A stretch of DNA of 64,000 nt from contig NW_020844153.1 in the NCBI RefSeq assembly GCF_003704095.1, forward strand, positions 1-64,000, read 5' to 3'. Origin of the DNA: Pocillopora damicornis. Lineage: Eukaryota. Each line of letters starts with the position of its first letter. Position 1 is the stretch's first letter. A model generated the notes under the pieces. The model saw nothing but the letters and a program-made list of their open reading frames with translations. It made no database searches and had not been told where the DNA came from. This document shows positions 1,593-46,775 of this stretch, piece after piece. Made by a program: the position numbers and the translations under genes.

Positions 1593-1800
1593 ACGGAAGT
1601 GGTAATTTATTCATTTTTCATGAAAGTGAGGTTAACATTTTTGGTTTCGTTTCAATGACGTTTCCATGGTAATAGAGAAGAATAAGCACGGACGTGTGTT
1701 TGAACCCGAAGTTGGTCGATATTTTCCCTTGAGATTTTCACAGATCTCTCGCTTGTAACGTTGAAAATGAAAATGAATCGTACGGCAATCTGCGCAAAAA
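1593..1800 (-). promoter_or_regulatory. Putative promoter block with ETS-like (acggaagtg 1593-1601) and ISRE-like (ggtttcgtttca 1643-1654) motifs; homologous to 7085-7500
   Basis: Visible similarity to the region upstream of the paralogue (gaggttaa, gtttcgtttcaat, agaga, gcacggacgt.tgtttgaa, gcttg.a.cgttgaaa). Confidence 0.55.
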
Positions 1801-3263
1801 GCAGTTTATCAAGGATTAAGCCTTGCCAAACGTTTTCGTGTAGATTCATTGACAAATTTGTGAATATTAATTCATTACGCTGGCTTCCCGTTGTCTGAAT
1901 AAAATTCTTTTGTCTTCGGAACGATCTTGGAATTGAGAACACTGTCGTTTTCTCGGAATCCTAGTCCTCATTTCTCATTGAATGTTTGGTTTAAAAAGCG
2001 ACAAATGATTTCGAGAGAGTTTTCTATAATGAAGGCGCATTTTTTGAGCACTCTTTTATTTGAGGGCTTCATCTCAACAAAACCAAATTGGTAGAGCAAA
2101 ACTGACTGATAAATCATGCTCGTGGCAGCGTTGAAATTTGTGGACCTCAGTTCTAGTCGATAACCAGGGATGAATGACAATAAAAATTAACTCTGTGCTA
2201 TAACATATACTGAATGGAATTTGGATGTCTTTTTTGGTTCTGAAATTCGCCACTGAAGACACTCTACTCTCAACACGGTGGTATGGGTGCAGCGTAAAAA
2301 AAAGAAGCATATCTGCATAATTATGTTATTTTAATTTTATAATACGCTTTCCAACGCTATGTTACTCAGCCAACAGTTTCTGTGAAAATCATTTCACTAA
2401 ACAGACCAGCTGTCAGGTTGAAAATTGCAAAAACAAGCCATTTTCCTCAACCCAGTCATGTTAGGAGAACATTGTCGTTTTCTCGGAATTCTAGCTCTCA
2501 TTTCCGTAAAGTGTTCAGTTTCAAAACGGGACAGACGATTTCTTGGTCGAGTGAGTAAGTCAATATATCTTCAGGGACCTTGCCATGTTTGTCTTGGTAG
2601 TGTTTAGATATAGAAGATGACCGTTGTTTATGTGTGTCCACACCTGCTTATGCACTTCGATGTTCTAAAGAGATGCAAAAGAAAAATTTGATCACTTGGT
2701 GCACGAGATGTTATTCATCAGAGACTTAAAACCAACTCTGATCGTGCAATCCGACTTAATCCGTGTTAAATCCGGATCTTAATCTTAATCTTAATCCCGC
2801 ATTCTTTATCATGTAAATGTATGGCAGTTATTAATACTCGCAGAATTCATTATCTTAACGATAAAAGTTACCTTGACAATTGCGTCATGAAGACTCTGAA
2901 ACGTGGGTTCATCGCTATTTTTTACGTGTTTATTTTTATACTAAACAAATAACAACTTCTTACACATAAGATAATGAAATCCCTCTGGGAAATTAGTCCG
3001 CAGAACAACGAAAAAACAGCAGCTTTTTATCGTCGGTTGCAAAACAGTGTTGTATGACTGTAATAGTAATTCCATTTTTAGTCCTATCTTTGTTGCTTAA
3101 AAATAAAAATATTAGCTTTTATGGAGGACTGTTCTTACTATTGAGAATTCCAGAGCAGTCGGTGGAATGCCGTATCAGTTGCAGTTGTCATCAATCATGT
3201 GCTAGAAGCTAAAACTAATAAGCCTTTTCTCAGCCTCTAAAAGTGTGAAACTCTTTTACAGAC

Positions 3264-3264
<1 letters not shown>

Positions 3265-3317
<53 letters not shown>
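3265..3317 (+). repeat. (GATA)n microsatellite, probably the 3' tail of the adjacent LINE fragment
   Basis: About 13 perfect GATA units directly abutting the LINE 3' end. Confidence 0.95.
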
Positions 3318-3730: not shown

Positions 3731-4550
3731 TTTAAAGTATTTACAAAACCACACCGTTTTTCCTTTCTCAACTTTTTTGAAAGTAGCCTACAGTTTCTTA
3801 TCTGATTATCAAATCCTTCTCGCAACCAGACAGTTTTATGGGTACATATGTACATCATAACCATAACAAGTTGCACGTGGTAAATGGTAGAAGCCACCCA
3901 CGCTTTCCTAAAAGAATAGATTTTCATGAAACAAAGATTTTTATGAACAATGAAAAAGTAAAGGATTAAACATGACTTTTGGGGGTCAATGTTTTTGCAA
4001 TCGAGTGTAGTCTCAGAAAAGTTTATCGAGCCCATCGTAAATTGAGTGGTTGAGAAGCAAGGTTTCGGATTGGAAGTTATTGCTCTCTGTGAATTGAATC
4101 TTTTCAGATGCAAACAAACAGTTCAATACTGGAAGATATATTCTGGGTAGAACTGATCAATGTCAAAGACAATAAACATAGTTGGCTTCAATGCGTCATC
4201 CACACAGGAGTCATAATAAAGGATACCAGCTCCATTCAAAGGTTGCTTGTGGGGTGGTCTTCGATAGTTGGGGTTTCCCTTTACATACGAACCCACGAGG
4301 ACTTTGGCCACGAACATAAATCGAGACCTATTGGCATCTTCTTTTGCTTAGTTGTGGCTGTAGGATACTTTCACCGCAAAGTAGCTTCCTTGACCATACA
4401 AAGTAACGGTCGCAGTGCCACTTAGCCGCCAATCAAAGTTCTCTTTACAGATAGCCTCTACGGAATCTGAACTGGTTCCATGGAAAAGGCTTTTCTCGTT
4501 GACCCTCTGTTGATCACCGTTTGCTAGTTGTGTCATGTAGTCTTTTTTCC

Positions 4551-4650
4551 NNNNNNNNNNNNNNNNNNNNNNNNNNNNNNNNNNNNNNNNNNNNNNNNNN
4601 NNNNNNNNNNNNNNNNNNNNNNNNNNNNNNNNNNNNNNNNNNNNNNNNNN
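4551..4650. other. Assembly gap (100 N)
   Basis: Run of n. Confidence 1.
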
Positions 4651-5639
4651 TCAATCATTATAATCTGTGAACAAGACATCTTACCTTTTAAAGACGGTCA
4701 TTTCTTCAGGTGATATAAGTCTTTCTGGTCTTCGTTTCACCTTTCTTTTGGTACCGTATTGCATGTTTACTTGGTGCATGCCTTTCTCTGAATGAAAGAC
4801 CAAGTAGTACTCATGAGCTTTGACTTTGAAATTGAACGTATAGTCTGTCTCATTTCGCTTCAGCCCTTTAACGAAAGCTTGCTCTATCAGTTCTTGTAGA
4901 TTTCTTCCCTTAAAAACAAAATGTGAGTCGATATTAATGCGGATCGACTAACACTGTCGAGTAAGATGTAGTTAGTTCTCTTAAGGAAATGACATCTCAT
5001 TTGTTGATTTTATAGAATTCTAGTGGGTGCCATAATGCGATATTTTTAATAGAGTTTTTCAAAGTGCTCAAACAGGCAGCCATCATGCAATACTACTCGA
5101 ATTTATCTTTAATCGGTTTTACAGGAATTATGATTTAAACTTCAGATACATTTGAGAGATATTTCATAAGGGAGAAATACCAAATACTTTGTATCTTTTA
5201 AGAAGAGTTTTGCGATTACGATAGCTTGTAAAATACGAAGTGAAATCAGAAAGTAACGTCTAGCGATGAGGAGGACGATGAAAGGAAACAATATAAAGCC
5301 TGACATATGAATGTTCTGGGCTCTCTAAGATTTCAAACACAGTCTAAAGATACACTATAAAAGAACAGTTTACCAAGTGGTCCTTCTCGTACATACACCA
5401 AACGCCGCCATTATCTTCCCAGTACCATTTCCAGTTGGTGGAGAGAGTGTGACTTGGGTTTGTGGAGCAAGGTGGAGTGGCAAAGCACCTTAATTTTCCA
5501 GAGCCATAGCCTGCGGCGCAAATTCCTGCCGTTGGTTTTATTGACAAGGTCATGCTGTTAACGTCGATTGAGACTTCACATTCCCATGGTGGCAGAGTCT
5601 TTCCATCCGGCACTACGAAGTATCATAAAGTTAAATTCA

Positions 5640-5975
5640 CAAAATAACAACCATATTCTCCCGGACGCTAACAAGAACGACTAAAAACAACTCAAGCAGG
5701 TAATACGAAACATTCAGGCCATATGAAGCGAGCAAAGCCAACCATTCCAAGAATCTGTGGGCGATACTGTTCAATGCCTCAAATAGTTTTGGGATGAACA
5801 TGCGGAGATTGTCCAAAATAACAATCATACTTTTCCAGACACTAAAAAGAACGACTGAGAACAATTCAAGCAGGTAACATAAAACAGTCAGGCCGTATGA
5901 AGCGAGCAAAGCCATCCATTCTAAGAAACTGTGGACGATACTGTTCAATGCCTCGAAGACCTTCGAGATAAACCA
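5640..5975 (-). repeat. Two in-frame 174-bp (58-aa) hydrophobic repeats
   Basis: caagcagg at 5693 and 5867; the unit FEALNSI.H.FLEW.ALLASYGL.V..YLLELF.VVL.SV is repeated. Confidence 0.85.
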
Positions 5976-7084
5976 GCAGACATTCTCCATTATAACACAG
6001 ATATTATCCGAGAGTTTAATACTGGTTAATGCCCCAAAGTTCATCGAGACGTATACGCGGAGATTGTCCATAGTAAGGACCATATTCTTCCAGACGCTAA
6101 CGAGATATGTCTCAGTTAAATGAAGAAGATGTGTAAACATCGACAAAACAGAGTGTCGTGAAGGAAAGACGCTCGCATTTGTAACAGTAAAAGTCAACAA
6201 AATGGCAACAATTAATATCGCCATCATTTTTGCGTTACAAAGTCCGCTCAAACGATCCATTTTTCGAATCATGATCCAAGTTTCGGTACTGCATACGGCA
6301 AAACTGGAATCGAAGTGTCTCTTGGCCTCTTTCACACCTATGTAGACATTACTACAGATAAATCTCGTGGCATGTTTGCCCCAAAGCATCACCATTTTCA
6401 TTATGCCGCACAAAAAAAAAAAGTTGCCTAAAACTTCTCCTGTCGATTCTTAAATTTAAGGCCCAATCTAAGAAAGATATAATTAGGTAACGCAGAAAAG
6501 TAAACACGCCATTTAAAGCGAAAACCATAATGGGCTTTAAGCAATATATGGCAACTGTTATCGACCCCACAAAGATTTTCGAGATGCAATGGAAGACATA
6601 CTTAGAGGTAACCCACACGTTCATCAAAATCATATCTGCGCCTTTCACTATTACCACAAACGCAAAACATATGAGGGAACTCAAATATCCACATAACAAC
6701 CAGAAATGAGATTGTAAATAAAAAATATCGTCTCGACTGCCACTATAATCATGAACAGTATGACAGCAATTTTTATCACCGCAACTGCTGCGTTACCAAC
6801 CGAAGAATGTTGGCTCAAGCGATTCATCTTAACGTAAATGTTCCTTGCTTCGATCCAGATGATGGTACATAACGAATCAAATAGCCTCTTGGCCTGTTCA
6901 ATTGCATTTGAAACCTTGCCACGCAAGGCATTCTGTTCAACACTTCCGCAGTGTCTTTTCGAGTTGTGGTTGTATATACCAGACATTTTATATCTAAGAA
7001 TTTCGCTCAATACCAACAGCAGGATCGCATATCTTCTAAATTTCGTTTTCCGTTTCGAACGTTCCTCGTAAGTTGTAAAAGCTA

Positions 7085-8235
7085 AGCTAAGCCGGAAGTG
7101 GCGATTGCGTGATCTTTGACGAGGTGAGGTTAAAAATTTCTGTTTCGTATCATTAAATTGTGTCAAAATTCAAAATTCGAAATTTCTAGTAGAATAATAC
7201 AGGCCGGAAGTGGCTATTGTGTGATTTTTCACAAGGGTGACTCGTTCTCCTGAAAAATCACGCAATTCAGTTTCGTTTCAATAAAATGTGCCAGTAGAGA
7301 GAAATAACGGCACGGACGTATGTTTGAAACAGGAAGTTTATTTATGTTTTCCTTCACGTTTTTCACTGTTCATTTGCTTGAGATCTTAAATGATATTTTC
7401 TCTTGAGTTCTTTGGATTTTTTCTGCTTGCAGCGTTGAAACAAGGAATATTGAAATGACTGGCTGAGCGCAATGTGCACCGAAAGCAGTTGTCATCGACT
7501 TTCGGTCTCTGTCAGCGGTAAAAAAAGCTATTTTCCTTTTGGAAGGATCATATGACTAGGATGTTTGATGGCTAGCGAAGAATGCTGTTCAAAATTTAAA
7601 CTGACCCTAAAAAAATGTTTTAACCAGATTTTTCTCGTTACTATTTGTGACCAGTCTTGCTCTGCTTCCTGTCATTCAAATGTACAGTGAGGAACAGAGA
7701 AGTGAGCTACAATTGCATTTTGAAATTAGATTCAGTGCGCGTCTTTCAAACACAATACTTGGCACGTGCGTATTAGACAAAACAAACTGTGAATGACAAT
7801 ATATGATAATGTCATCTGAATTCAATTGAGTCTGATTATTTCTAAAAATAGGGAATTACTCTGCGCTATCGATGGAAGAAAAAAGTGAAAATTATTTTTT
7901 GGGCGGCTTAGGGCCAGTCTTTTATTTTGAAACCAAAACTGTGTTGGAAATAGTAAAAAGAGTTATTTTGCGACGCAAGGACAGGAAAAAAGGTATAAAT
8001 TTAAAATAAGTTTTAGTTCCCTGGAGTAGATATTTCTTCCTTGTTATTTCATTATATATTTTTTCAGCCGTAAAACAATCGAAGTTATCTCCTTCCCTCC
8101 CGAATAAAACAAAAATACGATGAAAGAAAAAAAAGAAAGAAAGTTGTATCCCCACCCTAGTCCTGTTAGGAAAGTGTTGTCGTTTTCTCGGAATTCTCGC
8201 CCTCGATTCCATGAAGTTTTCGTTTCAATGCCAAT
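7085..8235. promoter_or_regulatory. Divergent promoter region between the TM-PARP pseudogene and PARP12-like gene A, with ETS-, ISRE/IRF- and GAS-like motifs
   Basis: ccggaagtg at 7092 and 7204 (local ~112-bp duplication); cagtttcgtttca 7268-7280; aaaagtgaaa 7881-7890; ttctcggaa 8185-8193; agttttcgtttca 8215-8227. Confidence 0.5.
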
Positions 8236-11200
8236 ATGGCGGATGATGTTTTGGTTGAGAAAGTTTTCAATTTTATTTGCGGTAGTGGCGGATTTGTGGA
8301 GTTACCTCTACTTTTGAAGGATTCATCGCCTTTGAAAAACATAAAATCTAACTTGGAAGCGAAGAACTGGCTGACAAATCATGGCCGTGGCCGCTTTGTT
8401 GAGGTGAAAGATATAAATGATGAAGTCATAGGTGTTCGCGTTGAGCTGAAAAAGAAAATTTGTCAACAATATCTTGCACGGGGTTCATGCAGGAGAGCGA
8501 AGGGTTCGTGTAAATTCTGGCACATTTGTAAAAGCTTTATCGAGGGAAAGTGCGAAGGAGACTGCCGTCGTTCGCACGATTTTCTCGACAACGACAACGA
8601 AGCGAAGACCAAAGACCTAAATATCGAGAAGCACCCGAATGGCACACAACGGAACATCATTGCCTGGAGTCTACCACAGGTTTGTCAGTTGTATTTGAGA
8701 GATGAATGTAAATCGGAAAAATGTCCATATCTTCATATTTGCCCGAATGTAGTGCGACAATTGCCATGCAGTTGTAGTTTATCGCATAATTTGACTGAAC
8801 TTAACAACAAGAAAATACTGAAGCAGTATGACCTTGTGCCACATCAGTCGATGAAAACTGCTTTTGTTTGTAGCAGTATTTTAATCATGAACGAGCAGAG
8901 GTATTTTGGCAAAGGTAAATTCACAAGTGATGATACAACCGTTAAAAAGGCCTCACTTAAAAATAACGCAAACGAAAACAGCTCACAGCTTGGGGCAAGC
9001 CAAGAGCCGAACTCGAGTGGAACAAAAGGTTTTCATGTGAGCTCAAAATGCAAAGAGTTTCTTAATGATGATATGGAGGCGAGTTCGAAGAAGAATGAAC
9101 CGAAACCCGGTCACTCGAAGGCAAAGAAAGAGCAAAAACAGAAGCGTATACCGAAATACGTCAACAATTTGGCGAGTTGTGCAGATGCTTCAGCAAGATC
9201 TCAGAAAAATCCCGGGTTTCTAAATATACACGAAGAGGAAGAAGAAGGCCACTCGAACTCATCTTCAGAAGACAACAAACCCTATTCTAAAAGTTTCCTC
9301 TCTGCTAATCAAGGTGAATCGATTCATCAGATTCCAGAGTCGAAAATAAGTCACGAAAAGACTGGTAACGAAGTCAAATTTCGTCATCCTAAACTCGTGT
9401 CAAATAAGAAACCTGAAGCGGATCCGTGTACCTCAAATGGCGCAGCCAAAGGTGGTGTTGTTGATGATGACCCGCCTGTTTTGCCCGTTGATGATATCGG
9501 AAACGATTTTGTGAAGAATTGGGTCCTGGGTGTTGATGATTTTTCCTCTGAGTCCAGTCAAAGCCTTGGAAACTCTCAAATTGAAGAAAAACCAGCGGAA
9601 CGCAAGCGAAAGTCATCCATATCAAGTTCATGCAGCTCTGTTCCGAATCCACAAAAGAATACACCCTCTAAGAAGGCTGTCTTTGACTGCATTCTGAAAG
9701 AATACAATGGTACTGTCTCCTTTCTTGATATCTCGAAAAGAAAAGACTTGTTTCCTGAAGGATGTGGAGATATTGCAGCGTGGTTTATAGCAAGGAAAGA
9801 AAGCTTTCTGCTTAGGGAAAGTAAAGACGGAACACTGAAAGTGGACGTTCTTTGTAAACGAGCAAAATTATGTTTTAACCAGGATCATTGCTCCAAAGTG
9901 GGTTGCCCTTATCTACACGTGTGCCGAGATTACATCGCTGGTTTTTGTAGATTTGGCGGTAGATGCCAAAGAAACCATAGTTTTGAATACGATGAAAGCA
10001 GAATGCACATTTCTAAACTTAAATTATCTGGGTTTAGCGAAGAACAGCTGCGTAAACTCGTTCAGCTGTCAATACCCCAAGTATGTCTGGACTATAATGA
10101 AGGACACTGTGTACTCGGAGAGAGTTGTTGGCAAATGCATATTTGCAAGGATATGATAAAGAAGAAGTGTTCAGATGGAGTCATTTGCAGTCTCAAGCAT
10201 GAAGAAGCATTGTTGACGGCTCAAGCAAACACTGTGCTAAGTAGATATGGCCTGAAAGTCTGGGATGACAACGTTCAACCGATTTTGCGAACCCTTCTCA
10301 TCTGCGAGAGGAAATCTTCAGTTGACTCTACACCCCTTTTAAAAGACACTGTTTTAACAGCAGCTAGTCTGACATCGTCGAGCAGTGCAGTGGGCAGCCG
10401 AAAAGAGAAAAACCCGAGTGGTGCCATTCCTTATTCACTTGCATCCGTTTCTGTAGCCAGAACACCCAGCACTGTTTCAACGCCAAGTGGTTCGAGGACG
10501 TCAGAGGGAGCAGCTGGCGGCACAAAAGTGAGCGATCAGAATAGTAGTCCAATTCCTTTTACAGGTGCCGTTGTGAACAACAGTGAAGCATCCGAACGAA
10601 AAGTCTTTGAGTGCTTGTGCAAAGAATACAACTGCTCAGTTTCGTTTTCAGTGATTTCTAAACGCACTGATTTGTTCACTACCGGATTCAAAGACGTGGA
10701 GTCTTGGTTTCGAAGAAGAAATGGGAGCTTTTTGATCTTAGAAAACCCGGATGGGGCAATTACAGAAGTAAGTGCCTTTTCCGCAAAGGTTCGACTCTGC
10801 TTCAGTTACAACGCCCCCTATGGAACTTGTACAAAAGACAACTGCTCATTCCTGCACGTCTGCAGAGATTATATCACTGACTCCTGCGCCAACGGAGCAA
10901 CATGCCCACGGAACCATCAATTCCGCAACGAGAAGGATAAGGCTTTGCTGTCTAAGATCAACCTCGACAAGTTCACAGACGAGCAACTTCGCCGGCTTGT
11001 GCTGTTTTCGTCACCACTGATTTGCGTAGAGTACAACGATGGTATTTGTGATCGTGGCGATGCTTGTCCTAGAATTCACATGTGTGGCAACCACTTGAAA
11101 AAGTGCTCCCGAGAAAGACATGGTTGTATCTTAGAGCATGAATCCGCCATGACCACTGACCACACCAAAGCAGTTCTCGAGCGTTATCGTATGGACTACT

Positions 11201-14200
11201 TAAAACCAGGCGCAGCAAAGAAGGCTATTTTGCTTTTTGACGACTTGGCACAAAGTAGAGAAGCAGGTATGTTTCACTAAGAAAGCATACTGGTTTCAGA
11301 TTGTGCTCATGTATCCAGCAATATTTGTGATAAAGTATAGGTACAAAATTAAAATTGCTTTGATTTTATTCGGGAAGCTTTTTTTTTAATTTTATTTTTA
11401 TTTTATTTTATAAACTAGGGTTTTAAAACTAATGTCTTTGGTCATAATTGGACAATACAAAGGTGTTTTGTTAGGATTAATCGATGATTCTGTGGCACTA
11501 TCAGTCCCTAAATATGCTCAATTTCGTTTGCTCTCCCTATAGAGGTAAATGAAAAGTGATCCTTTTTTTTCCAAGGATAACGAAAAACGTGTCTTTCTCC
11601 CTCAGTCACACTGCTGTTTTTATCGTCGTCAGGTCATGTTCACACTGATCAACCAGATGCATATATCTGTTCAGATTTCCTTCTGGGAAAGTGTAAAAAG
11701 GGCATCAAGTGTTCTGAGCACCACTGCTCGTTGCCTTACCACTGGCAATACAGAGTCGAGAATAAAGGAGTCTGGAAGAGTTTTAGTGAGACTGACAATG
11801 AGAAGGTGGAGAAACTTTACTGTGACGCAATGATGAATGATTGCTCAGCCAATGGCTTCAAGCTGTCTTTCAAAAGGTAAGCCAAGGAGAGTCGTGTTTG
11901 AATACAGAGTATTTTGCAGAGGCAAACATAAATTGTTTATACAAGCTCAAGTCTAAAATTATGGGTTTACAAGCTCACTTCTTTGTAACCTCGATATTCC
12001 CTTATTCGTTGCTATCTGTTCTGGTAAATTGTGTTGTAATAATTTCTCATGATTAATTTATATGTATGGTTCTTTTTGAACCTCATTTATTCACAAGACC
12101 TTTGTAGACAAGCCCCTCAAGTTTAGATTACGATTGATGATCTGGTTTAGATCATCTTTCAGAAAGTGTTCTATTCTTGATGCAAATTCCTTATTAAAAG
12201 AAGCCCGCAATGAGGAATTTAACTTGATAAATAATGTACCCAAAATTTCATGATACTGAATTGGCACACAGATCGTAGTTAACTTAAAAATCGATTTTTT
12301 TAAGTCATGGATTCCCTCTCTTGGATGAAGAGTATACCGTGCAGTTCCTGTTTGAAAATGAGCTGATGCTTGTGCAGACAGATTTTGAAGTCGTCGCAGA
12401 CATTAGGCGGCTGTCCACAGAACCCTTCATCAATAATCCCGTTAATCCTTTGGCTGCTGTGTGGACTTGGTACTGGAAGGACGAAAATGGCATGTGGCTC
12501 GCGTATGGCTCAGACTACCTGGTAAGATTTTATGTGAGGTGCCATTTCTGGGTAATTGTTACAAACATGTTTTAAAGAAGAAATAACAAGTAAAGGTAGT
12601 AATTAGCCATGCTTTTTAAGCCTCATGTTATGTTAGGAAACTGTTAAGTCATGGACGTGTTAATAAGCAAACGTTATTTTGTTCAAGTCATTTGAAAAAA
12701 AAAATGAAAACAGTTAAACAAGCAGTAAACACAATCAGAAATCAGTAGATTAATTCATTGGAAATTTTTGTATATTTTCAGGGGAATGATCTTCAGCGAC
12801 CCATAGAAGAGGCATTCTTATCCACCCCATACTGCTATAAGTTTAAAATTGCCGAGCAAGACTATGTACTGCATTTCCTTAAAATGGAACAAGAAAACTT
12901 GAGGTATGGCACTAAACGACAAGTAAGGAGAAGACCTGGAGAATTTAGATCAGGCGCAGACATCCTGGAGATTCGAAGGTAATTTCAAGTGACAGTCAAA
13001 ACTTTCCGCAACGGCCACTTCTGAGGCAAAGAAATTTAGAAAGGGTGCAACACAGCACATTTTTTGTAAGAAGGGTCGAACTACATTTCTGAAGTTGTTA
13101 ACATGTTTATTTCAGCATATTAATACGTAACACACTCAAAGTAATGTACTGAAAAGAAAGGAAACATTAAACACCAAAGGATTGAAGCACACTGTTTTAT
13201 CATATTTTAAATACTTACTGCATGAAGAGAGCGATATGACCTTTCGGGGAGTAAGCCATGTTGCCCTGGTCAGGTGAGGGGTCAAACCTAGAGCTATCAA
13301 TCTGGAGAATGTGGCAAAGCCAGGAACGCCAGGATATTGGAATATCTCGGAGCACTAGACTGTATCGAAACAGTCGCAGCTTGACTTAACAAAATGCTCT
13401 TTCTGGCAAAACGGAGTGCAAAATGGTGCGATAGTAGTGGTGGAACTCCCCAAAAAACTAGGGAAGTTTGGGTCAGGTTACAGATAACTTTAAAATTTTG
13501 GTGGGTACATTAATTGCGCTTGAGTGTTTTTTTTTTTTTATGTCTGTCTTGCTTAAGTATAAGTATTTTCAATTTTTTTCGCCCAAGGTCATCCAGGAAG
13601 GGAAAACCGATTACAAATGTATCAAATACTGAAAGGCCTAGCAACTGGGCTTCTATGCCATCTACTAAGCAGTACACACGTGTCACGTTAAGCACTGTAT
13701 CATCTGAGTACAAAGAAGTGGAGAGGTTATTTAAAAGTTCAATCAAAAAAAGGGTCGTTATCCGTAGAATCCAGCGTGTGCAAAACTCTTTCATGTGGGG
13801 AAAGTATCAAAGGTATTATTTATTTATTTATATATATGTAGGAAATCTTTGTTTCGATTTTTCCGTCTTACAGTGCTCGATACATAAAAATAGAGCGTGA
13901 TATGTACTGTGTTAGGGGGAAAAAACAAGGAGACTACGCTTTCATCCCGAAAAGCCTGTTTAGTTATTAAAATCTCTCTTCAGGGGATTTTAAAATCCCC
14001 TGAAAAGTGATTTGAGTCAAAATCAACTTTTTGTGCTATATTATTTCAACGTTTTCGTAAATAATAGAAAAACTATTCACCTCAGTGTTGGTGGATTGTT
14101 TGAAACATTCTTATGTTGAAACATACTCTATTCTTCCGTGGAAATGGTCGTAATTGGGTATACGTAAAACGCTCTTTACCTGAAGCCTTGTTTTTGTTTG

Positions 14201-15018
14201 TTTTTGAAAGGAAAAAGGAATATTTGTTGACGATCAAGACAGGCGGTCACAAGTTTTCCCCCTTGAACGAAAAGAGGTTGTTCCACGGAACCAGCCCCGA
14301 TGCTGTAGAGGCCATTTGTAAACAAAACTTTGACTGGCGCTTAAACGGAAAGAACGCCACTGTTTATGGTGAAGGAAGTTATTTCGCTGTAAATGCCTCT
14401 TACAGCGATGCTTATGCAAAGAAAGACGCAAATTCGTCTCAATTCATATTCTTAGTCAAAGTCCTTGTTGGAACTTACACCAAAGGCGACTCCAGCTATC
14501 GAAGACCGCCTCCAAAACAACCATCCAATCCTTCGAGTGACCTGTACGACTCTTGTGTGGACGACGAGTACAATCCAACCATATTTGTGGTGTTTGACAC
14601 CGATCAGTTCTATCCAGAGTACATCATTGAGTATTCTGATGAAAGTAGAAGGTATTCCGGAGCTCACGGAGCTGGCCCTCAGACAGGAGCGTATGCAGTA
14701 CCTTCTTATAGCCGAGCTGCCCCATCTACCAGCTCCTTTAATCCCACAAGTGGTTATTACTCATCTAGTAGTGTGGCATCGAGTAGTTATGGCTCAGCCT
14801 CTAACAGCTCGTCTAGTACACCGTACCGCAGCACAGGTACAAGCTACTATTCAGGTACGGCGAGCTCTCATAATACAACATATTCATCGCACATCTCAAG
14901 CACAGGAACATCAAGAAATTATTCTTCATCAACGAATACTTCTAATGTGTCACACCACAGTTCAACTCCTAGCAGCTCCTCGAAATCTTCCAAAGACAAC
15001 AAGTGCTTGGTAATGTGA
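8236..15018 (+). CDS. PARP12: PARP12/ZAP(ZC3HAV1)-like protein A, ~1573 aa: 3x(HTH+4 CCCH) - CCCH - WWE-WWE - mono-ART (H-Y-I) - Ser-rich tail - CaaX
   Basis: Exons 8236-11266, 11633-11876, 12305-12521, 12782-12978, 13588-13812, 14211-15018; all introns GT-AG, phases 1,2,0,2,2, total 4722 nt in frame. Motifs: CCCH fingers, LPYHWQY, WTWYWKDENGMW, LFHGT, NFDWR, YGEGSYFA, YDSCVD, TIFVVF, QFYPEY; ends KCLVM*. Confidence 0.9.
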
Positions 15019-16194: not shown

Positions 16195-16530
16195 ATGAGA
16201 ACAAGAACAATGATGATGATAACGATAACGATGATGAGAATTACAGTGGTAGATGATTGTAATGATGATAAAAAAAATCAAATCAAAAAAATTCTTGATC
16301 AAAAAAGGAACAATAAGAGCAAAAATAATAATGATGATGATGATGATGATGACGACGATGACGGTGACGGTGACGATGACCTCGAAGACTATGATAACGA
16401 TGATGATAATGATGAGGTCGATGAGGATAACGTTGAGGATAACGAGGACGCTGACGATATCGATGACGATGACGATAAAAATGATGACGATGACAATAAC
16501 GTTGGTAATGAAAGATGTTAACGTTAATAA
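16195..16530 (+). repeat. Degenerate (GAT/GAC/AAT)n low-complexity trinucleotide tract
   Basis: gatgatgat/gacgat/gataac runs, which produce poly-D, poly-I and poly-H ORFs in several frames. Confidence 0.85.
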
Positions 16531-20431: not shown

Positions 20432-23340
20432 ATGGAGTACGATAATGTGGTCCACAAAGTGTTTAACTTTGTCTACGATTCTGGCGGTTTCGCCGAATTG
20501 GATTAAATTTTTTAGAGCATCCGTCACCATTAGCATTTAAAGGGACAGAGGGAAGAGTGATAAGATGGTTGAAGAGGCAAGTGGTCTTGCAGTTGTAAAA
20601 GATCGCAATGGTGAAACTGCTGGTGCGCATACTGATCTAAGGAAGAAAATGTGCCAGGAGTATGTAATCAAAGGGTCATGTACAAGAGGGCAAGAAAGGT
20701 GTAAGTTTTGGCATCTCTGCAAAAGTTTTATTGACGGAAATTGTGACGGAGACTGTAAATGCTCATTCAATTTTTTGTACAAGGTTAGCAAGAAAAACAC
20801 AGAAAAGTTCAACCTCGAAAAGAGAACAAATGACGCGATAAAAAGCGTGGTAGCCTGGAGTCTTCCTCAGGTTTACTTGTTGTATTTAAGAACAGATTGT
20901 AAATCAAATAAGTGCCCATATCTTCACATCTGCCCCAAGGCAATTCGAGAGTCGCCTTGTAAATAAGCCACGTCACATAATGTGACCGATTTTCATAATG
21001 TACTAGTCCTCAGACAGTACGATCTGAAACCGCATAAGGGGATGAGTATCGATTTTTTCCGCTGCAGTATTTTAGTCCTAAAAGAACAAAAGCGTATCAA
21101 GGGGTGCAAATACTCAAGTGTTGCTCCCATTAAAAAGGGAAGCGGTAGTCATGCCCAAATTTCAATCGTCACGGCATCACCTCCAAGTGTAGCGGGCGCA
21201 CGTTGCTCAGGTAACGCGACTGCAAAGAGTTCGCCAAGTGACTCTTTGACTGGCGCTCAACGAAGTAACACTAAAAATGCAACAAAATGGTCGAAAAGAA
21301 AAACAAAGCAGTAAACAACCTAAAAAAGTGTCACATCACTTGGTAAAATCATCCGTTCCACTTGTTAACAACCTGGCCAAACATTCCCGTTCAATGCTGA
21401 ATAATAGGTCCCTCAATTTTCTATACATTCCATCTGAAGACAAGGTTGAATTGCCGATGGATTCGACATCAGATGAAAATGTCAATACCAGGATGTGTCC
21501 AAACCCAATCAAGTACACCGATAAACCAAACACTCCACCCAGCGATCACAATAATCTTCCAAAGTCTTCACAAAAATCCACCAACCATTCTCCAACCATT
21601 GACGCAAACTTGGAAGATAAAAACAAAGTCGAAAACATTTTTGAAGCTGGTTCCAACGCAGATGAAAAACCATCAAGTAGCAAAAGTTGCCAGGTGAGAT
21701 ACCTTGGTAGCATTTCCAGCTCACGTATTGCTGTCACCCACTTCGAACCATCAGAGTTAAAGGTTTTCGAGTGTCTGTGCAAAGAGTACCTCTAATCGGC
21801 CCCTTTTTCTATCATTTGTAAATGGACGGATCTCTACCCTCCCGAGCATTCTGATATCGAGCTGTGGTTTCGTGAGAACAAAGGAAGTTTTTCGATAAAG
21901 GAAGATGATTAGGGAATGATTTCAGAAGTTTAAGCCTTCTCTTCAAGGGCATGTATCTGTCATGGTTATACCTGCAATGTAACTTGTTCGAATGAAAGCT
22001 GCTCGTACATGCACGTTTGCAAAGATTACGTCACTGATTCGTGTTCCAATGGGGCAACTTGTCACTGGAATCACAGCTTTCACAACGGAAAAGACCGGGT
22101 ATGGCTGTCGAGAATTAAGCTAGATCAGTTTATTGAGGAAGAGCTTCGTTGGCTCGTGTTGACATCGACACCACAGATTTGCGCAGAGTACAACAATGGA
22201 ATTTGTCAGGATGGGTCCTCGTGCACCAGAATCCATACGTGCATCGCCTACTTACTGAGGCGCTGTAAAGCATCTGGCTGCGGTCTTAGCCATGAAGAGA
22301 CCATGAGGAGTGAGCACAATAGGGCAGTGCTTGACTGGTATCAGGTGACCGATTTGGATTCAGGCTATCTCGACCAGCTCATTCTGATGAATGAAGAACC
22401 GGTTAAAAAAGGCGACACAGCTAATTCAAAAGTGCGAATTTGCAATTCAGTTTTTCCTCACGACTCAAGGGATTCCCACACGGTTGCTGCAAGTCCCTAA
22501 GCCCAAAGCCAAATTATCACAAGCAGTGCTGTCCCAGTCTCAAATATTTTCAAGAGCAGCACCCTGGATGCTGAAGAAATCCAACCGCCACTGTGGTCAC
22601 GGGTCCAGGTATCCTTTGTCTCACTTTTACAGACGAGGCAAGGTTACCAGCAGCCACTTTTCCTTCAATGAAGTTCTAACCGTCAACAAATCTTCCAGAA
22701 CAAAAAGTGCAAGGGAACTCTTGGCCAGGGAAAGGTTTTTCAAGTCCCCATGTATCAGAACCGTGCACCTCTGTTAAGGGGGGAAATGATTCATAGAGAG
22801 ATGGCCAAAGACCCTGTGATACAAGTTCGGTTGTCTCATAAAAAATTATCACGGAAGGCTCCCTGTTATCAAAACTCTTTGTTTCATGGGCAGCTGTTCA
22901 AAACGAGAGAGTTACCACCAACGCTCCTTCAGGCAGATATCCCCCATATCATTGCAGCTGAGTTGCAGTCACGGAGAGACTCTGTTACTCGTGACAAGTC
23001 AGGGTGTTCAACCAAGTTTAACGGGGAAAGCGATCATTCTGATGAACTAACTACACAAGGAAGAACCTGGAGCTCATCTTGGCTGTCAATAACCCGTAAT
23101 GACGATGATGCATTCACACAGTCCAGTTATTAAGCGAGGACTATGACTGCCATAAATATACCCATTTGTGCAGATCGTGCGTTTAGCTCTTCAAGCCGTT
23201 CAACTTTCACCAACCACTTATTAGTCTTGAAGGCGCATGTTCCAAGCTGTTCCTGTCCAAGAAAATTTTCCCCGGGAAAGATGAAAATTATAACAGCCAT
23301 CATCATATCTATGATCATCTGTATGATTACAATCATTTGA
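20432..23340 (+). pseudogene. Decayed ZAP-like CCCH gene (two HTH+4xCCCH modules, no WWE/PARP exons seen), possible C-terminal TM
   Basis: Starts MEYDNVVHKVFNFVYDSGGFAELD* at 20432. Fragments KKMCQEY..GSC.RG...CKFWHLCKSFI and SELKVFECLCKEY..MHVCKDYVTDSCSNGATC align with modules 1 and 3 of gene A, with multiple stops and frameshifts. Confidence 0.85.
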
Positions 23341-26918: not shown

Positions 26919-29900
26919 TCAACAGACCACCTTAGATTTGGTCTTGAACTTTATCAAGAAAGTCGGGTAATACTGATCCGAGGCAAACAGCACAAAAATG
27001 GTGGGCTTGGTGACGTTATCCACACAAGAGTCATAACGCTGTTTCTTGGCTTCGGAGTCACTCCTTAACGGTGGTCGTGGTAAGGTTGGCTCACCTTTGG
27101 CATATGACCCCACAAGAACCTCGCACAAAAACATGTACCGGAAGGACTCGGAGTCTTGCCTGCAGTAGAGATTACTCAAGGCCGCCTCCTCTGTGAAGTA
27201 GGCTCCTTTACCGAACTGGGCAGCTCGGTCCTCTTCTAGAGCACGACAGTCGATGTTCTCCTCACATATCGTGTCTACAACTTGGGGATCAACTCCGTGG
27301 AAGAGAAGTTTTTCATTCATAGGATTGTCTTTGACCGAGGCCTTCTTCTCCATCCATTCTTTCTTACTAAGAGGAACAGCACAAAATTTCAGCTTCATTA
27401 TTGGGAATGAAATTTCAACCTAAATTCTGTTTTGATTTGAAGTGAGTGAATTGCAAGTTTTAGCAATAATTTTTTTCTTATTGCCGTTATAATTGCGTTG
27501 TTGAAGTTTTTATTTTAACCAGAGTTCAGTTCTTGTTTCGTTTACCTTAAGGTAATTTTCTTAAACAATAAGCCAAGAGGCCAGAACTGATTAAAAGACG
27601 CAGGCAGCAGTATTCACGAGATGTATGACTTTATGCGTAAAGTAGTCAACTGCTTAACCCAATTCATCTCTGGCTGCGGGCTAGACATTTCCTACTTTCC
27701 TAGTTCACTACAAATGTATGTGTCAAATGCAACCTCAGTGACTTCAAAGTCTGTTGGGATTCATCAAGAGCAAGAGTTACACTGGTGCGTATGACTGTAA
27801 TACCTAGAAAAAACCTCGAAGAGGATTAACTACCAAAAGAAGAAATAACACGTTCAATACATACTCTGCATACTTCTTCCACAAAAACGGATTTTGAACT
27901 CGCTCAACGGAGATGATAGTTGCCTTGTTTTCGGACATGGTTTGGCGAAACAGGCTTTCGGCACATTTGAATTCATCTGAGTTGCTAGTCAGAGGAACAC
28001 GCATGAACTCTCGGTCTTCAGGAACACGTTCCCAGTGAGAAGGAGTGTGACCATGTGATGAAGCTGAGGTAGACTGCCCTGGTGTTGCGGGTTGCAATGG
28101 GATTGGTAGTTCAAGGGGACTGAAGAATATAAAAAAAAACACGAAGTTCGCTTAACCTTATAGTGCTTTTCCTCGCGAATTAAAGCTCATACTGTTCATT
28201 TGATTTTTTCAGTTCCTGGCCTTCTTTAGAAAAGTGATAATGATAATGACATAAAATAAACTCGTGTTTGTACAGAGTCTCAAAGCAGATACAACAAAAG
28301 CTAGCTTACAACATATACCCATACAATATTCGTTTGACTACGATGTATACACTCTAGATACCAGTAAACAAAAACTCAAACAGCAAAGTAAAAATCTCAC
28401 TGGAGAAACGAAAACACTAATATACATTTATACATACAAGAAAACAAAAGAAATAAACAAACAGAACACCACCCGAAGTGTTCGGCCTACCCAAGTGCGC
28501 TTACTGTGATTGGTCAAAATAACAATCACCCCACCAATTTGATGCATGCAAAAACAAAAATATATTCCTCGTCAACACGCGTTTCCCACGTGTTTCTACC
28601 TCATGACTTTCTGTATTGTAAAATAAGCCTTGCGCATAAGTTGCCTTCGTTGTTGCTACGAGCGCATTTTACGTTTTAAATGACCCCCTGAGATGGACGA
28701 TAGGGTCATCATGCCACAAAATAACCTTGTAGAAATCAAGGTGACTGGATCTAACATATCTTTAGAGGTAAGCATTCACAGTGTTAGTTTTTACCTCTGC
28801 AGCCTCTCTATTTCCGACTTAGACCTAAACAAAGGCCTTCTTCTCACTTTTGTAACTTTAATGGGTGGTTTCAAGTTCTGCTGGTACATGGATGTTTTGT
28901 GAAAAAACAACTTATGGTCCTCTCCTCCTCTTTTAAATTTATGGAATGATCTTCCTTTGGTGAACGACTCTTCTATTCGCTTCTGTTTGGAGACATCATG
29001 GCACGAAAAAAAGGAAAATAGAAAAAAATAAGCCTTCAGAAGATACCACCGCCGAAATGAGGAAGTGAACTCCCCTTTTTTCCCGAAATAACGACAAACA
29101 TAAAACTTCGGTATCTAAGAATCAATAAATTATAATAAAACCTGCCATTGCATGGAAAAGAAGGGGACATTTCCTGAATATGGAAAATGCTCGAAGCTCG
29201 TTAATAAATACAAAAACATTAAATAAACAACAATATCAAAGAAAAGTTATGCTCACAATAAATTTGTCCCTAAAATGGATGACAAAAGCAAAAAAATAAA
29301 AAAAAAATTATGCATATATATAAATATATACATATACATATAAATATACATACATATAGGCTGCGGTTACTTTAGGGCAGTTTCAGAACCAAAACTGTCT
29401 CCAGATGTGGATATTTATATCATCTTACTTGCAGAGCTTCATAAATCACTCACCAAATTCTCCAAAAATGTTTTTTTTACTTTTCAGACCTAAGATAAAA
29501 TTTGATTTGCTCATTGGCCTAAAAGAATGCAGTGAATTGTCAAGCAACTCTCAGATGAGAAGAGAGGACCCCTTTTCTGTTACCAAGCCAATGATAGTCT
29601 GTGTTCTTGATATTAATTTTTTTTTCCTCTGTTTTTACCCAAAAGAGTAGGAATGATCAGCAATTATCTTACAGACATACCATAAGCTCAGAATCATACT
29701 CAGTCCAACTGCTGTCCTGATCTGACAGGTACCAAACCCATGTAGTCAATAGAGAATGATCTGTAAGCGAGCTCACTGACTTAGTGGACAGACGTCTCAG
29801 CTCCACAGATCCAAATCCTGTCACAGCTTTCATTTCATCAAAGTTGATCTTGATGTAACCTTCTCCAGGATCAATACTGCAGCAACAAAAGGGAAAGTTA

Positions 29901-32900
29901 ACTATCACACAGAAGTGAAACCAAACATTATGATTATCAATCATATTTAGATCAGCGTTAACTTATAATATAAAGATCTTTCCAAGCTTAAAACTGGAGC
30001 TTCAGTTAGTTAATTTAACAGCCCTTCCTTCATCAAAACTCCTCACTGTCGGTTGCAGAGTGTATTCTGGGAAATCAGTCATAAGTTATGAAGAGAGGGT
30101 GGGTATACCAGGGATAAGGGCTGGCTACCCTTCTTTATTTAACAAAATAAATATATTCTTCGGGTTCACTAGACAAGAAAAGTGATTAAAGCTGTAATTT
30201 CCTATTGGTGAAACAAGTTGTACTTACAGTGCAGTTGGAGGAGGTGCAACTTGAATGTGTCCAATTTCTGTCTCTGTAACATCAACAGTGCAGAACTGTC
30301 TCTCAATGTCTTCACTATCATTTTCGGTGAATGCCTTCCATCCATCTGCTTGCTCATTGTCAAGGTATCTATACTGCCACATGTATGGCATGTTGTGATG
30401 AAAGTACTCACACAATTGAGCCTTGCCACAATGACCCAATAGGAATTCCAGGCAGATGTACTGGGGGCTATGGAAGTTTTGCACCTCTGTCTTTGGATTC
30501 ATCACTTGTTTCTTTTGAGGTTGTGCAGCTACAGAATTAACAAAGAGATTGTTCAGTAATAAATTTAGAACTGAATTTTCATTTATGTTCTTAGAGGCCT
30601 GTGTATGAACAGGGTTAATTATTAAATATATAAAATAAAATCAAGAATACCAAACATTCCCAAACCGCTGGAATCAGAGTCATTAGAATCCTGCCATGAA
30701 CAAATACATGGTAAAGGATGATTTTGGGCGTTAGATGATGAAATCTCATCAATTTCTTTGCTAAAAGTATGGTTATTTCATAAGATTTGATGTCTCTGAC
30801 ATTTGTCTAACATCATAGTACAGTATCATCTCATTTCTTTGACACAATGATTTGCATCTGTAAAATAGATACATGCAAGTGAACAAGCTCAATAAAAAAA
30901 GATCCATAAACAACCCCATGCTTACAAATTGAGTTAGAAATGACCATGGCCAGGTTCAAAACACAAATGACAAAATTTCTTGGTCAGATGTGTACAGATA
31001 ATGAGATAGTGTATGTAACCATAAAAAACTAACTTGGGTAATGGTACTTCAAGCAATTTCCAGTGCAGCCCAGTACCAAAGGTACAATACTGATTACACT
31101 TCTTACCAGCTTCTTGTTCCTCTTTGGTTTCCATGGTCAATGGTTGCCTCTGTCCACGCACCAGAATGGCTCGAAAGACAGCTTGCACTGGAACAGTGGT
31201 CAAATTGTACTTCTCTAGAACTAACCGGGTATGGGGTTCTTTGAGACTTGCCTCATGGTTAAGAGGGCAGTTGGCTCCATTTTTGCAATTGCCCATTACA
31301 TAATGCTTGCAGACATGAATTGCATAGCAACGTAGACCTCTCCTGCATCTAGAAGATTTCTTGTTGTAATCAAGACAAACTTCAGGAACAGAGGCAGAAA
31401 TCAGGACACGTAGCTGCTCATCTGAGAAACAGCCAAGCTTCCGCCTTTTAGTGATGTTTTTGTTGTGAGGGCTCTTCAGATTATGGCTATGGCTGTATCT
31501 ACATTTCTTCCCTAACGGACAGGCACCATTAGCAAGATAATGCTTGCAGACATGGTAACGGAAACACTTTGGATCCTTACAGCCATTTTTGCCCATCAAG
31601 TAGCGAAAACAGATGCGTGCTTTAGGGGTGCATGCTCTTACTGATTCAATTCCCCCTTCACTGTTCTCAATGATCATAAACCTGCTTGAGTTTTCCCTGA
31701 ACCATGCAGCAATATCAATAGCATCTAGAGGAAACAGGTTGTAGCATTGGGATATTACAGCAAAAGGCACTTCACCATTGTGTTCTTTACAAATGTATTG
31801 AAAAACAGAGTTTACAGCTTCTTTTTCCAATTGGCTTTCTGCACTGTGCTGTTCAGATGGGTCAAAAGAGGTACTGTCCTGAGACAGTGCTCCTGCAACA
31901 TTTGTTGGGGACAGGTTGAAGAGCAAATCATCCACTTGAGAAAGTGGCTCAAAAGTTGAGAAGTCATCCTGTGAACCAAATGTATCTTCAAGATCTTGAA
32001 ATCCATCTTCTAACTCATCAGAAAAATTGATCAAGTTTCCTTCAGCAACTTCACTTATGCCCATTCCAGAAACCTGGTTCTGGTAAGTCATCCCACTGTT
32101 GGATTGTGTTTGCTTCCTCAGACCTTGAACAGATGTATTCCCTGATGTGTCTACATGCTTTGTGCTTGGACTAGGCTGATTGGAAAATTTTGAAACTGAG
32201 TAAAGATCAGGTTTGTCTGGCAAATCTTCATTATCTGAGGTTGAATCTGAACCTTCCTCTTCAACATCATCTGCAAGTGATTCTTCACATGGTTCACCTG
32301 CTTGATTTGCCTTTTTCTTCTGTCTTCGTCGTTGCCTTCTCCTCTTCTTCAGCCTCTCATCTGGACACCTTTTCACTTGTGAATCCAGATTGTTATCATC
32401 TTTTAGGGCTACAGGCAAGGACATCAAAGATGCTGGCTGTGATGTTAAAGAAGAACATGCTGAGGAAAGCTTGGCTTCTGTGGGACCTTTTTGCCTCTTT
32501 GGGAACAAGATGTTGCTCTGCATTATGATTATTTTGGTTCTCTGAGGGTCTAAATCATATTGCTTTAGAATTGAGGAATTATGGTCATCATTTAAAGCGT
32601 GTGTCAAGTTACAACTGCACGAGTTTTCTCCAAAAGCAAGGGGGCATAAATGTAAATGTCGGCAGTCATTACTGTAGTTGCATCTACTATTCACATATGG
32701 GAGACAAATTCGGGGAAAACTGTGTGAAATTATGTTCTTTAAAGTTCCATTTGGGCAACGCTCAATCCCCAATCTCTGTATCTTCTTTATGTTACCCTCA
32801 TCATGGAAGTCATGTGAGAGACCACAGCCTCCCTGACAAGTATCCTCAAGGTAACCTTTGCAGATATGCCAATACTGACAAGTGTTGAGAGATTTACAAT

Positions 32901-34056
32901 AACCTTTCATATACTGCAAACATAATTTTTTCCTTGAATTTACTCGAACACCGAGAATATCACCATTTTGGTTCTCTAGCAAAATGATTTTCTGTCCCTG
33001 TTCTGGGTGAGTGTTTACTTGAAGCCAAATCTTTGCATCAACCTCAGACTTTGAAAACTTCCCTACCAATGGCGAGGGTGGTTGTAATAGGTCCCGCAAT
33101 GAAGAGTACCCTCCTTTACTACATATGAAATTAAAAACTTTCATAAACAGAGGATCAGCATCAGGAGGTGCAGTGTCATGATGCATTTCTGGTTTGGCTT
33201 GAGCAGGTGCTTTTGGTTCAGGTTTAGAGAAGTTTTGGCATAAACGCGCCAGACTAACAGCTCCAGGTTTACCCTGATGTGAGGGGTGCCTCTGTGTAAT
33301 ATTATCAGGCTTATTAACTCTTGGCGTGGGTTGCCTGCTGAAGCTTGGATCATTGATAGCCCTTCCTTCAAAAGATTTCTGCTGCTTCGGGATCAGAATG
33401 TTACAACGAACGACATCCATGTCTGACGTTCGGGGAGGCCTGAACCCATACTGTTTCAGCAAGCTTCTGTTGTGCGGACTAGTGAAATCGTGATACCGAC
33501 TACATCCACAGGCTGTTGCCCGCACCGCATTAACACAAATATGAAGATACGGACAATTTACAGAGAGGCAACCATTTTTTGAATACATAAGACAAACCTG
33601 CAGAAAGCTTCCGGCGACAATAGTTTTCAAAGGCCCAGTCGCTTTTCCTTCAAAACCCAATTCCACCGTTTTCGCTTTGTTGTCTTCATCGTGAAAATCA
33701 TGTGATCGGCCACAGTTTCCTTTACAAGTTCCCTCAAGGAACTCCCTACATAAGTGCCAGAATTTACATCTACTTCCTGATTTACAAGACTCTTCGGTGG
33801 AGTACTTTAAACACATTTGTTTGGCCAAGTCGATTCGCACGCCGACAGCTTCATCACGTTGATTTCTTACCAAAACCAATCTGTTGTTTGGGTCCAAATC
33901 TTTCTGAGTTTGAAACCATAAAATCAGCTCAGTCTCAGTAGATTTCTTTGCCAAAGGCGAGGGATTTTTAAGTAAATGCGATAGTTCTAAAACTCCGCCA
34001 CTTCCACTGATGAAATTGAATACTTTTACAACTGAGACATCGCTCGATACTGCCAT
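26919..34056 (-). CDS. PARP12: PARP12/ZAP-like protein B, ~1445 aa: 3x(HTH+4 CCCH) - CCCH - WWE-WWE - mono-ART (H-Y-I)
   Basis: Exons 34056-31107, 30528-30228, 29876-29681, 28982-28795, 28119-27865, 27366-26919; GT-AG, the same phases (1,2,0,2,2) as gene A, 4338 nt in frame. Motifs MPYMWQY, TTWVWY, LFHGV, FGKGAYF, YDSCVD, TIFVLF, QYYP. Confidence 0.9.
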
Positions 34057-34489
34057 TGTGTCAATTAAGAATGGTCGAGCTGGCAAGCCTCGGTATTGAT
34101 TCACATGTCTTTTTTTTTTTTTTTTCACTTTTCTTAGAAAGTGACAAAGTCTACTAAGCGGGGGTACGGAGGTGCGTCAGTCTTACGACTGAAACAAAAA
34201 AATAGAGAGAAGATTAATAAAACGGAGGAAAAGATCAAAACTCCTAACAAAGAAGAAAAATTTACCCTCACTTTTGAAGTTAGACCCTTCTATTATCTGG
34301 ACATTCCTAGTCTAACCAAACGTGCAGTACTGGACAACCAGACTGATCGAGCCCTCCCTAGTGTGTTTTGATATAGTCTTACGCCCGCAATGCGACCTGC
34401 TGGTCATTAACTTGGTAACCACGTCGCGCGGCGGCCATCTTGCTAAGTTGTTTTTTCGTTGATTTGAGAATTTTAGCCTTACCTGAAAA
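34057..34489. promoter_or_regulatory. 433-bp bidirectional intergenic region between PARP12-like B and STEEP1
   Basis: Divergent ATGs at 34056 and 34490; IRF-like tttcacttttc 34123-34133 overlapping GAS-like ttcttagaa 34131-34139; YY1-like gcggccatcttg ~34431-34442. Confidence 0.55.
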
Positions 34490-37784
<3,295 letters not shown>

Positions 37785-46770: not shown

Positions 46771-46775
46771 TTCAC

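Follow-up and report, generated by a model that had tools for sequence, protein, structure and literature searches.

The PARP12-like gene cluster

The 64,000-nucleotide stretch analysed here (the window; positions 1 to 64,000 of contig NW_020844153.1, assembly GCF_003704095.1, of the coral Pocillopora damicornis) is eukaryotic DNA of 39% G+C. PARP12-like genes form a cluster in it, and the locus has held five or more of them, relics counted. Short STAT-, IRF- and ETS-type sites stand before these genes in repeated copies, and among them is a 16–17-bp element in which a gamma-activated site (GAS) overlaps a variant interferon-stimulated response element (ISRE). The members of the cluster are the following.

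1..1473, minus strand: G1, start codon (ATG) at 1473; an open hydrophobic-repeat reading frame (ORF) extending off the window edge, its PARP part lying beyond the window.
4096..6986, minus strand: G2, ATG at 6986; a broken paralogue of G1 with frameshifts, WWE and PARP exons downstream and an in-frame stop in the PARP exon.
8236..15018, plus strand: gene A; CCCH zinc-finger arrays with WWE and PARP, PARP12-like.
20432..22500, plus strand: gene C; a disrupted copy of the gene A first exon.
26919..34056, minus strand: gene B; CCCH-WWE-PARP, PARP12-like, with 43–45% amino-acid identity to gene A.

Genes A and B both combine CCCH, WWE and PARP domains, the PARP12/ZAP-like architecture, and each carries three repeated CCCH arrays in a single exon of about 3 kb. 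The initial annotation of this DNA had called them ZAP-like; PARP12/ZAP-like is the better label because ZAP split from PARP12 within the vertebrates (PMC8102003; this and all papers below are cited from excerpts of their text). The same source reports typically one PARP12-like copy in invertebrates, unlike the situation at this locus. The gene A first exon shares 68% identity with Stylophora pistillata LOC111332135, annotated as PARP12, and 92% with another cluster. G1 and G2 depart from this architecture, their N-terminus being a hydrophobic repeat (at 5640-6986, minus strand, in G2, which also contains an assembly gap at 4551-4650) with about nine membrane-like segments by hydropathy and no Pfam match. 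A profile-library search with G1 returned 23 relatives, the relative P0216 has WWE and PARP, and the search for longer homologues of G1 gave none among 4,863 candidates. Because the P. damicornis gene model pdam_00023751 fuses a G1/G2-type N-terminus to WWE-WWE-PARP, G1 and G2 probably belong to the PARP family, and the type suggests a membrane-bound PARP12-like protein. The identity between G1 and G2 by codon position (0.70/0.71/0.68) is flat and so bears no signature of purifying selection.

A candidate overlapping ISRE/GAS element before gene A

The initial annotation had proposed an interferon-stimulated gene (ISG)-style promoter grammar from ten sites, every one of which was recovered where it had been placed. 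Self-BLAST revealed that the sites are not independent, being copies of two ancestral promoter modules, so that the statistical sample consists of two promoters and not of ten sites; the duplication in turn provides a test of conservation between copies. The simplest history would be the duplication of an ancestral head-to-head pair, made up of a hydrophobic-repeat/WWE/PARP gene (minus strand) and a zinc-finger PARP gene (plus strand), with the zinc-finger partner lost in the left copy. A transposon origin of the modules was considered and rejected, as the window has no further copies and the relics carry the 5' end of gene A. The copies of the gene A element (module 2) and the sites beside it are listed below, with distances measured to the ATG and not to mapped start sites, and with local P values from 1,000 dinucleotide shuffles each.

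8178..8194, plus strand: module 2 of gene A; GAS (TTCTCGGAA, 8185) with variant ISRE (GAAA-NN-GACA on the minus strand), 58 to 42 bp before the ATG.
1943..1959, plus strand: relic c1, followed by a decayed gene A 5' end; 470 bp upstream of G1, which lies on the other strand (self-BLAST 1943-2133 vs 8178-8398).
2473..2489, plus strand: relic c2, followed by a decayed gene A 5' end (self-BLAST 2444-2556 vs 8149-8264).
34131..34146, minus strand: related element of gene B, in the same orientation to its gene as in A; 75–90 bp before the ATG, 12 of 17 bases matching.
8217..8227, plus strand: IRF-type site of gene A with a 1-bp spacer; 19 to 9 bp before the ATG, local P = 0.21.
34123..34133, minus strand: IRF element (IRF-E)-like site of gene B, GAAAAGTGAAA on the gene B strand; overlaps the other side of the GAS, local P = 0.16.

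The GAS is a TTC-N3-GAA palindrome (PMC5217051), and the initial annotation was right to see it at 8185 and 34131, 51 bp upstream of the ATG of gene A (8236, plus strand) and 75–83 bp upstream of that of gene B (34056, minus strand); further matches lie at 1950 and 2480. The element as a whole, of which only part had been caught, reads TGTC-NN-TTTC-NNN-GAA on the gene strand, and its first GAS half also serves as a half-site of GAAA-NN-GACA on the opposite strand. In the canonical ISRE (GAAANNGAAA) two GAAA half-sites stand 2 bp apart, and GACA is a described half-site variant (PMC6954429); four copies have the geometry of a candidate ISRE+GAS composite, with one half-site variant. All 17 bases are identical in gene A, c1 and c2, the flanks of which are 53–64% identical, and in 104 columns no other invariant run reaches four bases (permutation P ~1e-4). 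The candidate composite element is conserved above its background in this comparison, which is one between paralogues only. The relics have lost the reading frame and kept the element; service to G1, which lies on the opposite strand, may be what has preserved them. Outside the GAS, all four copies retain the TGTC half-site, and TTCYNRGAAANNGA, a pattern chosen post hoc, occurs four times, each before a PARP-type start (0.40 expected). The IRF-type site at 8217 is kept in neither c1, c2 nor gene B. A heat-shock element, the consensus spacing of which is 2 bp, was rejected as a reading of module 2, where the spacing is 3 bp. A cross-species scan of genome contigs with the gene A first exon gave 20 pattern matches and no relative.

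ETS and IRF-type sites before G1 and G2

The second module (module 1) consists of an ETS site and, 49–65 bp away, an IRF-type site, and is found in three copies before the two hydrophobic-repeat genes.

1594..1654, minus strand: G1 copy; ETS 1594-1602, IRF-type site 1644-1654.
7093..7152, minus strand: proximal G2 copy; ETS 7093-7101, IRF-type site 7142-7152 with one change, not listed earlier.
7205..7280, minus strand: distal G2 copy; ETS 7205-7213, IRF-type site 7270-7280.
7041..7056, minus strand: tripartite canonical ISRE; three GAAA half-sites with 2-bp spacers, 55–70 bp before the G2 ATG.
1686..1695, second copy at 7310-7319, no strand assigned: conserved 10-bp block of module 1, matching no motif tested.

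Invariant columns made up 18 of 19 in the motifs and 24 of 78 elsewhere, a contrast inflated to some degree by anchoring the alignment on the motif blocks, and the 11-bp IRF-type site kept 10 of its 11 bases over the three copies. The top blocks of the two-way alignment were the IRF-type site (13 bp), a 10-mer matching no motif and the ETS site (9 bp). Another 10-bp block is common to the module 1 copies (1626-1635 and 7124-7133) and matched no tested motif.

The IRF sites of the initial annotation do not correspond to the canonical ISRE, the spacer being 1 bp at 1644, 7270, 8217 and 17814, and 3 bp at 34123, instead of 2 bp. All five contain NAANNGAAA, the core of the IRF monomer element (IRE; PMC7819612, PMC5217051), a match that carries little weight because this core occurs 161 times in the window. 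The canonical 2-bp-spaced ISRE is present before these genes only at sites that had been passed over (7041/7047, 7137 and 1763). The tripartite site at 7041-7056 is the best classical match (local P = 0.002); it is one of two such triples in the window, the other being intronic, and is degenerate at the corresponding place before G1.

The gene B element and the age of genes A and B

Genes A and B are, to judge from their sequences, old paralogues, since their proteins are 43–45% identical, about half of their four-fold sites are identical (16/32 and 11/24) and they group apart in an unrooted FastTree tree of 15 PARP-domain segments. Gene B joined an Oculina protein (support 0.999) and gene A joined Porites and Montipora proteins (support 0.79). 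The tree places the A/B duplication before the Montipora/Porites and Oculina/pocilloporid lineages split, with the age of these coral clades taken as general background. The gene B element differs from that of gene A at 4 of 16 core bases, all of which fall in the 2-bp ISRE spacer or the 3-bp GAS spacer. A pairwise alignment of the two promoters did not bring the elements opposite each other, and they aligned only in the four-way alignment. The homology of the gene B element to module 2 is suggestive and not proven, because the gene B flanks do not align with those of gene A, and matches of 12/17 or better occur at 16 places in the window besides the three exact copies, gene B included. From this count, such a match would arise by chance in 150–300 bp with a probability of about 2–4%. 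The outer bases of the IRF-E-like site at 34123 are the end of a T run.

Chance expectation and position of the sites

Counts over the window were compared with an order-3 Markov model of the window, and promoters were compared within 300 bp of the ATG for the five PARP-cluster loci and eight non-PARP genes (13 ATGs). The control set excludes genes without a fixed ATG, namely the first protease and those near 58.9 kb and 63–64 kb. The IRF-E, kB and ETS consensus patterns are those we assume for these factors. Window-wide enrichment held for the 11-mer KTTTCGTTTCA (4 vs 0.30 expected, P = 3e-4; 1644 and 7270 are paralogous copies) and for CGGAAGTG (4 vs 1.15, P = 0.03), both chosen post hoc, and failed for TTCYNRGAA (12 vs 7.7, P = 0.09), the canonical 2-bp-spaced ISRE core (13 vs 11.1, P = 0.32) and TTTCACTTTTC (1 vs 0.22, P = 0.2), which begins with the tail of a long T run. 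The initial annotation, although right in its positions, was selective: two of the 12 TTCYNRGAA matches were listed, the fourth CGGAAGTG lies at 6941 within G2, and TTTCGTTTC is also found in an intron of gene B (28405). Eleven of the 12 TTCYNRGAA matches fall within 1-34,500, the half of the window with the PARP cluster, and one in the other 29.5 kb, some of them inside duplicated coding repeats.

Site position is more telling than these counts. The upstream and intergenic DNA of the PARP cluster (2,809 bp, 4.4% of the window) holds 4/12 GAS, 7/33 IRF dimers and 4/20 ETS sites, with positional binomial P values of 0.001, 0.0005 and 0.01, respectively, duplicated copies being included in the counts. 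An IRF dimer or IRF-E was found before four of the five PARP-cluster loci and two of the eight other genes, whereas TTCYNRGAA and ETS sites were each found before two of the five and none of the eight; kB sites were found within 300 bp of none of the 13 ATGs. The IRF dimers of G1 and G2 exceeded local shuffles (P = 0.006 and <0.001, respectively). Gene C has none of the three site types (IRF dimer, GAS, ETS) within 300 bp of its start. The proposed ISG grammar thus stands in that IRF-, STAT- and ETS-type sites lie proximally upstream and are far better kept than their flanks between diverged paralogous promoters. It does not stand as a full set, since ISRE, GAS and ETS come together within 300 bp in no single promoter (IRF and ETS in G1/G2; GAS and IRF-type sites in A/B).

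Proposed mechanism and alternative explanations

These data suggest that a coral PARP12-like immune cluster has two cis-regulatory modules under selection, which were copied along with the genes. In module 2, a STAT dimer site would have its first half doubling as one half-site of a tandem IRF site, from which it follows that coral STAT and IRF would bind the same 16 bp, jointly or in turn, with induction after sensing of double-stranded RNA (dsRNA) or cyclic GMP-AMP (cGAMP). In module 1, ETS near the likely start site would provide basal or cell-type (immune-cell) activity and the IRF sites would provide induction. The motifs, their duplication and their better retention than the flanks are observed, whereas the binding factors, the start sites, the induction of these particular genes and a two-way use of the relics are inferred. 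Selection on the module blocks is very probable, and the elements are real and probably functional, albeit fewer and less independent than the initial annotation implied. That STAT and IRF are the binding factors and drive the induction is favoured by a little, and a common ancestral origin of this link and the vertebrate one is tentative and on balance unlikely. The proposal in the initial annotation that IRF/STAT control of ZAP-like genes predates interferon would presuppose binding, function and common descent, and is not supported in that form. It is doubtful that, in the 16-bp element, one ancestral STAT-IRF composite has stood before both A and B ever since the two genes duplicated, with coral STAT and IRF binding it cooperatively.

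Several results weigh against this interpretation. Only two independent promoter origins are available, and the difference of 4/5 vs 2/8 in IRF dimers or IRF-E is not significant (Fisher P = 0.086), reaching P = 0.03 only when pseudogene C is dropped while the broken G2 is kept. The single-site shuffle P values for genes A and B are 0.07–0.21, the strict GAAANNGAAA core scores 0 for both, and the longest block of module 1 (13 bp) is not significant alone (P = 0.068). The IRF-dimer score of a non-PARP gene, the TMEM163-like one described below, equals that of G1 (shuffle P = 0.008). None of these sites (IRF dimer, GAS or ETS) lies within 300 bp of the ATG of the MPEG1-like gene of the window, in contrast with the strong induction of the MPEG1 homologue in Nematostella (PMC8476169). 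Knockdown of five IRFs (40–60%) or of STAT in Nematostella caused no measurable drop in cGAMP-induced genes, whereas knockdown of NF-kB did affect part of the cGAMP induction (PMC8713801). Finally, binding in mouse cells occurs at fewer than 1% of canonical ISRE sequences (PMC6954429). The unalignable gene B flanks and the 16 scattered matches belong with these points.

Neutral decay, by which chance motifs were multiplied through local duplication and have no function, would agree with the paralogy of every multi-copy site, with the G1/G2 coding DNA still being about 70% identical at all codon positions, with the two broken loci and with the post hoc selection of the patterns. Neither the 17-bp perfect run amid diverged flanks nor the 18/19 vs 24/78 invariant columns are expected under it, and this explanation is considered very improbable. 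It could also be that only the STAT site of module 2 and the ETS site of module 1 are real and the IRF-like matches are T-rich background, as the loss of 8217 from the paralogous copies, the T run adjoining 34123, the clustering of IRF dimers before the TMEM163-like gene and in introns and the lack of window-wide enrichment of the canonical core would all allow. The retention of the module 1 IRF-type site, of the TGTC half-site in all four module 2 copies and the tripartite ISRE at 7041 speak for real IRF sites, making this explanation improbable.

The blocks may, on the other hand, be functional without forming an inducible antiviral code, acting as core-promoter or housekeeping sites or as sites for other factors: the ETS site could be a widespread promoter motif, the GAS could bind a BCL6-like or different factor, or STAT could act in growth or stress signalling. 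Non-immune promoters often have ETS sites close to their start sites, module 1 keeps an unrelated 10-bp block equally well, the spacer of the main IRF-type motif is 1 bp where the canonical one is 2 bp, and the IRF and STAT knockdowns in Nematostella gave null results. None of the eight other window genes, however, has ETS or TTCYNRGAA within 300 bp, the changes between A and B are confined to spacer bases that STAT and IRF would be expected to leave unconstrained, and a 1-bp-spaced ISRE is present in human IFI35 (PMC5985295). This alternative is judged unlikely, though less so than the other two.

Comparison with known systems

The coral elements are a further instance of a pattern already published for cnidarians, which induce many ISG homologues. 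Lewandowska et al. 2021 (PMC8476169) reported an enrichment of STAT, IRF, NF-kB and ETS motifs around the 1,379 genes that poly(I:C) (polyinosinic:polycytidylic acid) induced in Nematostella, and the PARP12-like NVE23559 showed a log2 fold change of 4.19 (PMC8476169 supplement S1). The motif types are those of the coral locus and a PARP12-like gene is among the induced ones, whereas that study was genome-wide, used vertebrate matrices and an anemone, and in its excerpted text describes no single element, paralogue footprint or composite. Two zinc-finger PARPs of Nematostella rank among the genes that cGAMP induces most (PMC11784840). Homologues of IRF2, STAT5A, ELF1 and ELK1 are listed as induced in immune cells (PMC13319465). 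Nematostella has one STAT (PMC8713801), and no STAT1/STAT2/IRF9 complex would therefore be expected.

Overlapping ISRE/GAS sites occur in human BST2, TAP1, IFI35 and HLA-G, and in ZC3HAV1 a distance of 95 nt separates ISRE and GAS (Michalska et al. 2018, PMC5985295). In BST2 and TAP1 the spacing is that of module 2, the 3' TTTC of the ISRE being the 5' half of the GAS near the gene start, with the shared bases read off Table 1 of that paper. The outer half-site of the coral element is TGTC (GACA) and not TTTC, and binding in human was determined by chromatin immunoprecipitation (ChIP), while the coral composite is predicted from DNA sequence. STAT and IRF3 sites are also reported for the promoter of human ZAP (ZC3HAV1; review PMC10747524), again a zinc-finger PARP-family antiviral gene; ZAP, however, derives from PARP12 in vertebrates (PMC8102003), and sequence continuity with the coral promoters is not demonstrable. 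Shrimp IRF binds the Vago4 ISRE in electrophoretic mobility shift assay (EMSA) and reporter experiments (Li et al. 2015, PMC4602278), an interferon-free action of an invertebrate IRF through an ISRE as proposed here, although on a cytokine-like target in a bilaterian and with no GAS composite described in the excerpted text. A literature search found no description of these coral elements or of a cnidarian ISRE/GAS composite, which is weak evidence of absence as most subscription journals were not covered.

What appears to be new is the paralogue-conserved candidate ISRE/GAS overlap. Motif enrichment in cnidarians has suggested IRF, STAT and ETS while knockdowns showed nothing, and with the 16-bp element, chosen by conservation and not by a matrix scan, a small reporter could address the IRF/STAT question in cis and so sidestep redundancy and partial knockdown. 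As the broad idea is already in print, the gain lies in a sharper test and possibly in an early form of the composite element. If the ancestral composite reading were true, cnidarians would possess the composite logic of the BST2/TAP1 type while lacking interferon, STAT2 and IRF9, and ISGF3 might trace back to this form.

Neighbouring genes and other features

Two further features lie between genes A and C.

17814..17825, plus strand: IRF-type site of the initial annotation; terminates a pyrimidine tract in CAG, resembling a 3' splice site.
ATG at 18353: cation-efflux-type ORF, which we take to be TMEM163-like.

The site at 17814 had been counted among those upstream of the PARP-family genes and is not one of them: the ATG of the TMEM163-like ORF is 539 bp further on, and the stop codon of gene A lies 2.8 kb behind it. 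It may be a splice acceptor. The DNA that separates gene A from the TMEM163-like ORF contains, at 16195-16521, a long GAT/GAC trinucleotide tract (Asp/Asn-like low complexity).

Gene B has a head-to-head neighbour 433 bp away (34057-34490), a STEEP1-like gene that starts at 34490 and that the gene B GAS/IRF element could serve too. Its Pfam STEEP1 match (E = 2e-4, 42 aa) falls short of the curated cut-off. STEEP1 has a role in the exit of STING from the endoplasmic reticulum (ER). The MPEG1-like gene is a single-exon MACPF gene of the MPEG1/perforin-2 type at 38664-40985 (minus strand), 4.6 kb from the PARP cluster. Tandem duplicated rhodopsin-type G-protein-coupled receptor (GPCR) genes (46776, 52052) and trypsin-like protease genes occupy 46,200-62,750, and a long inverted repeat is located at 63389-63572.

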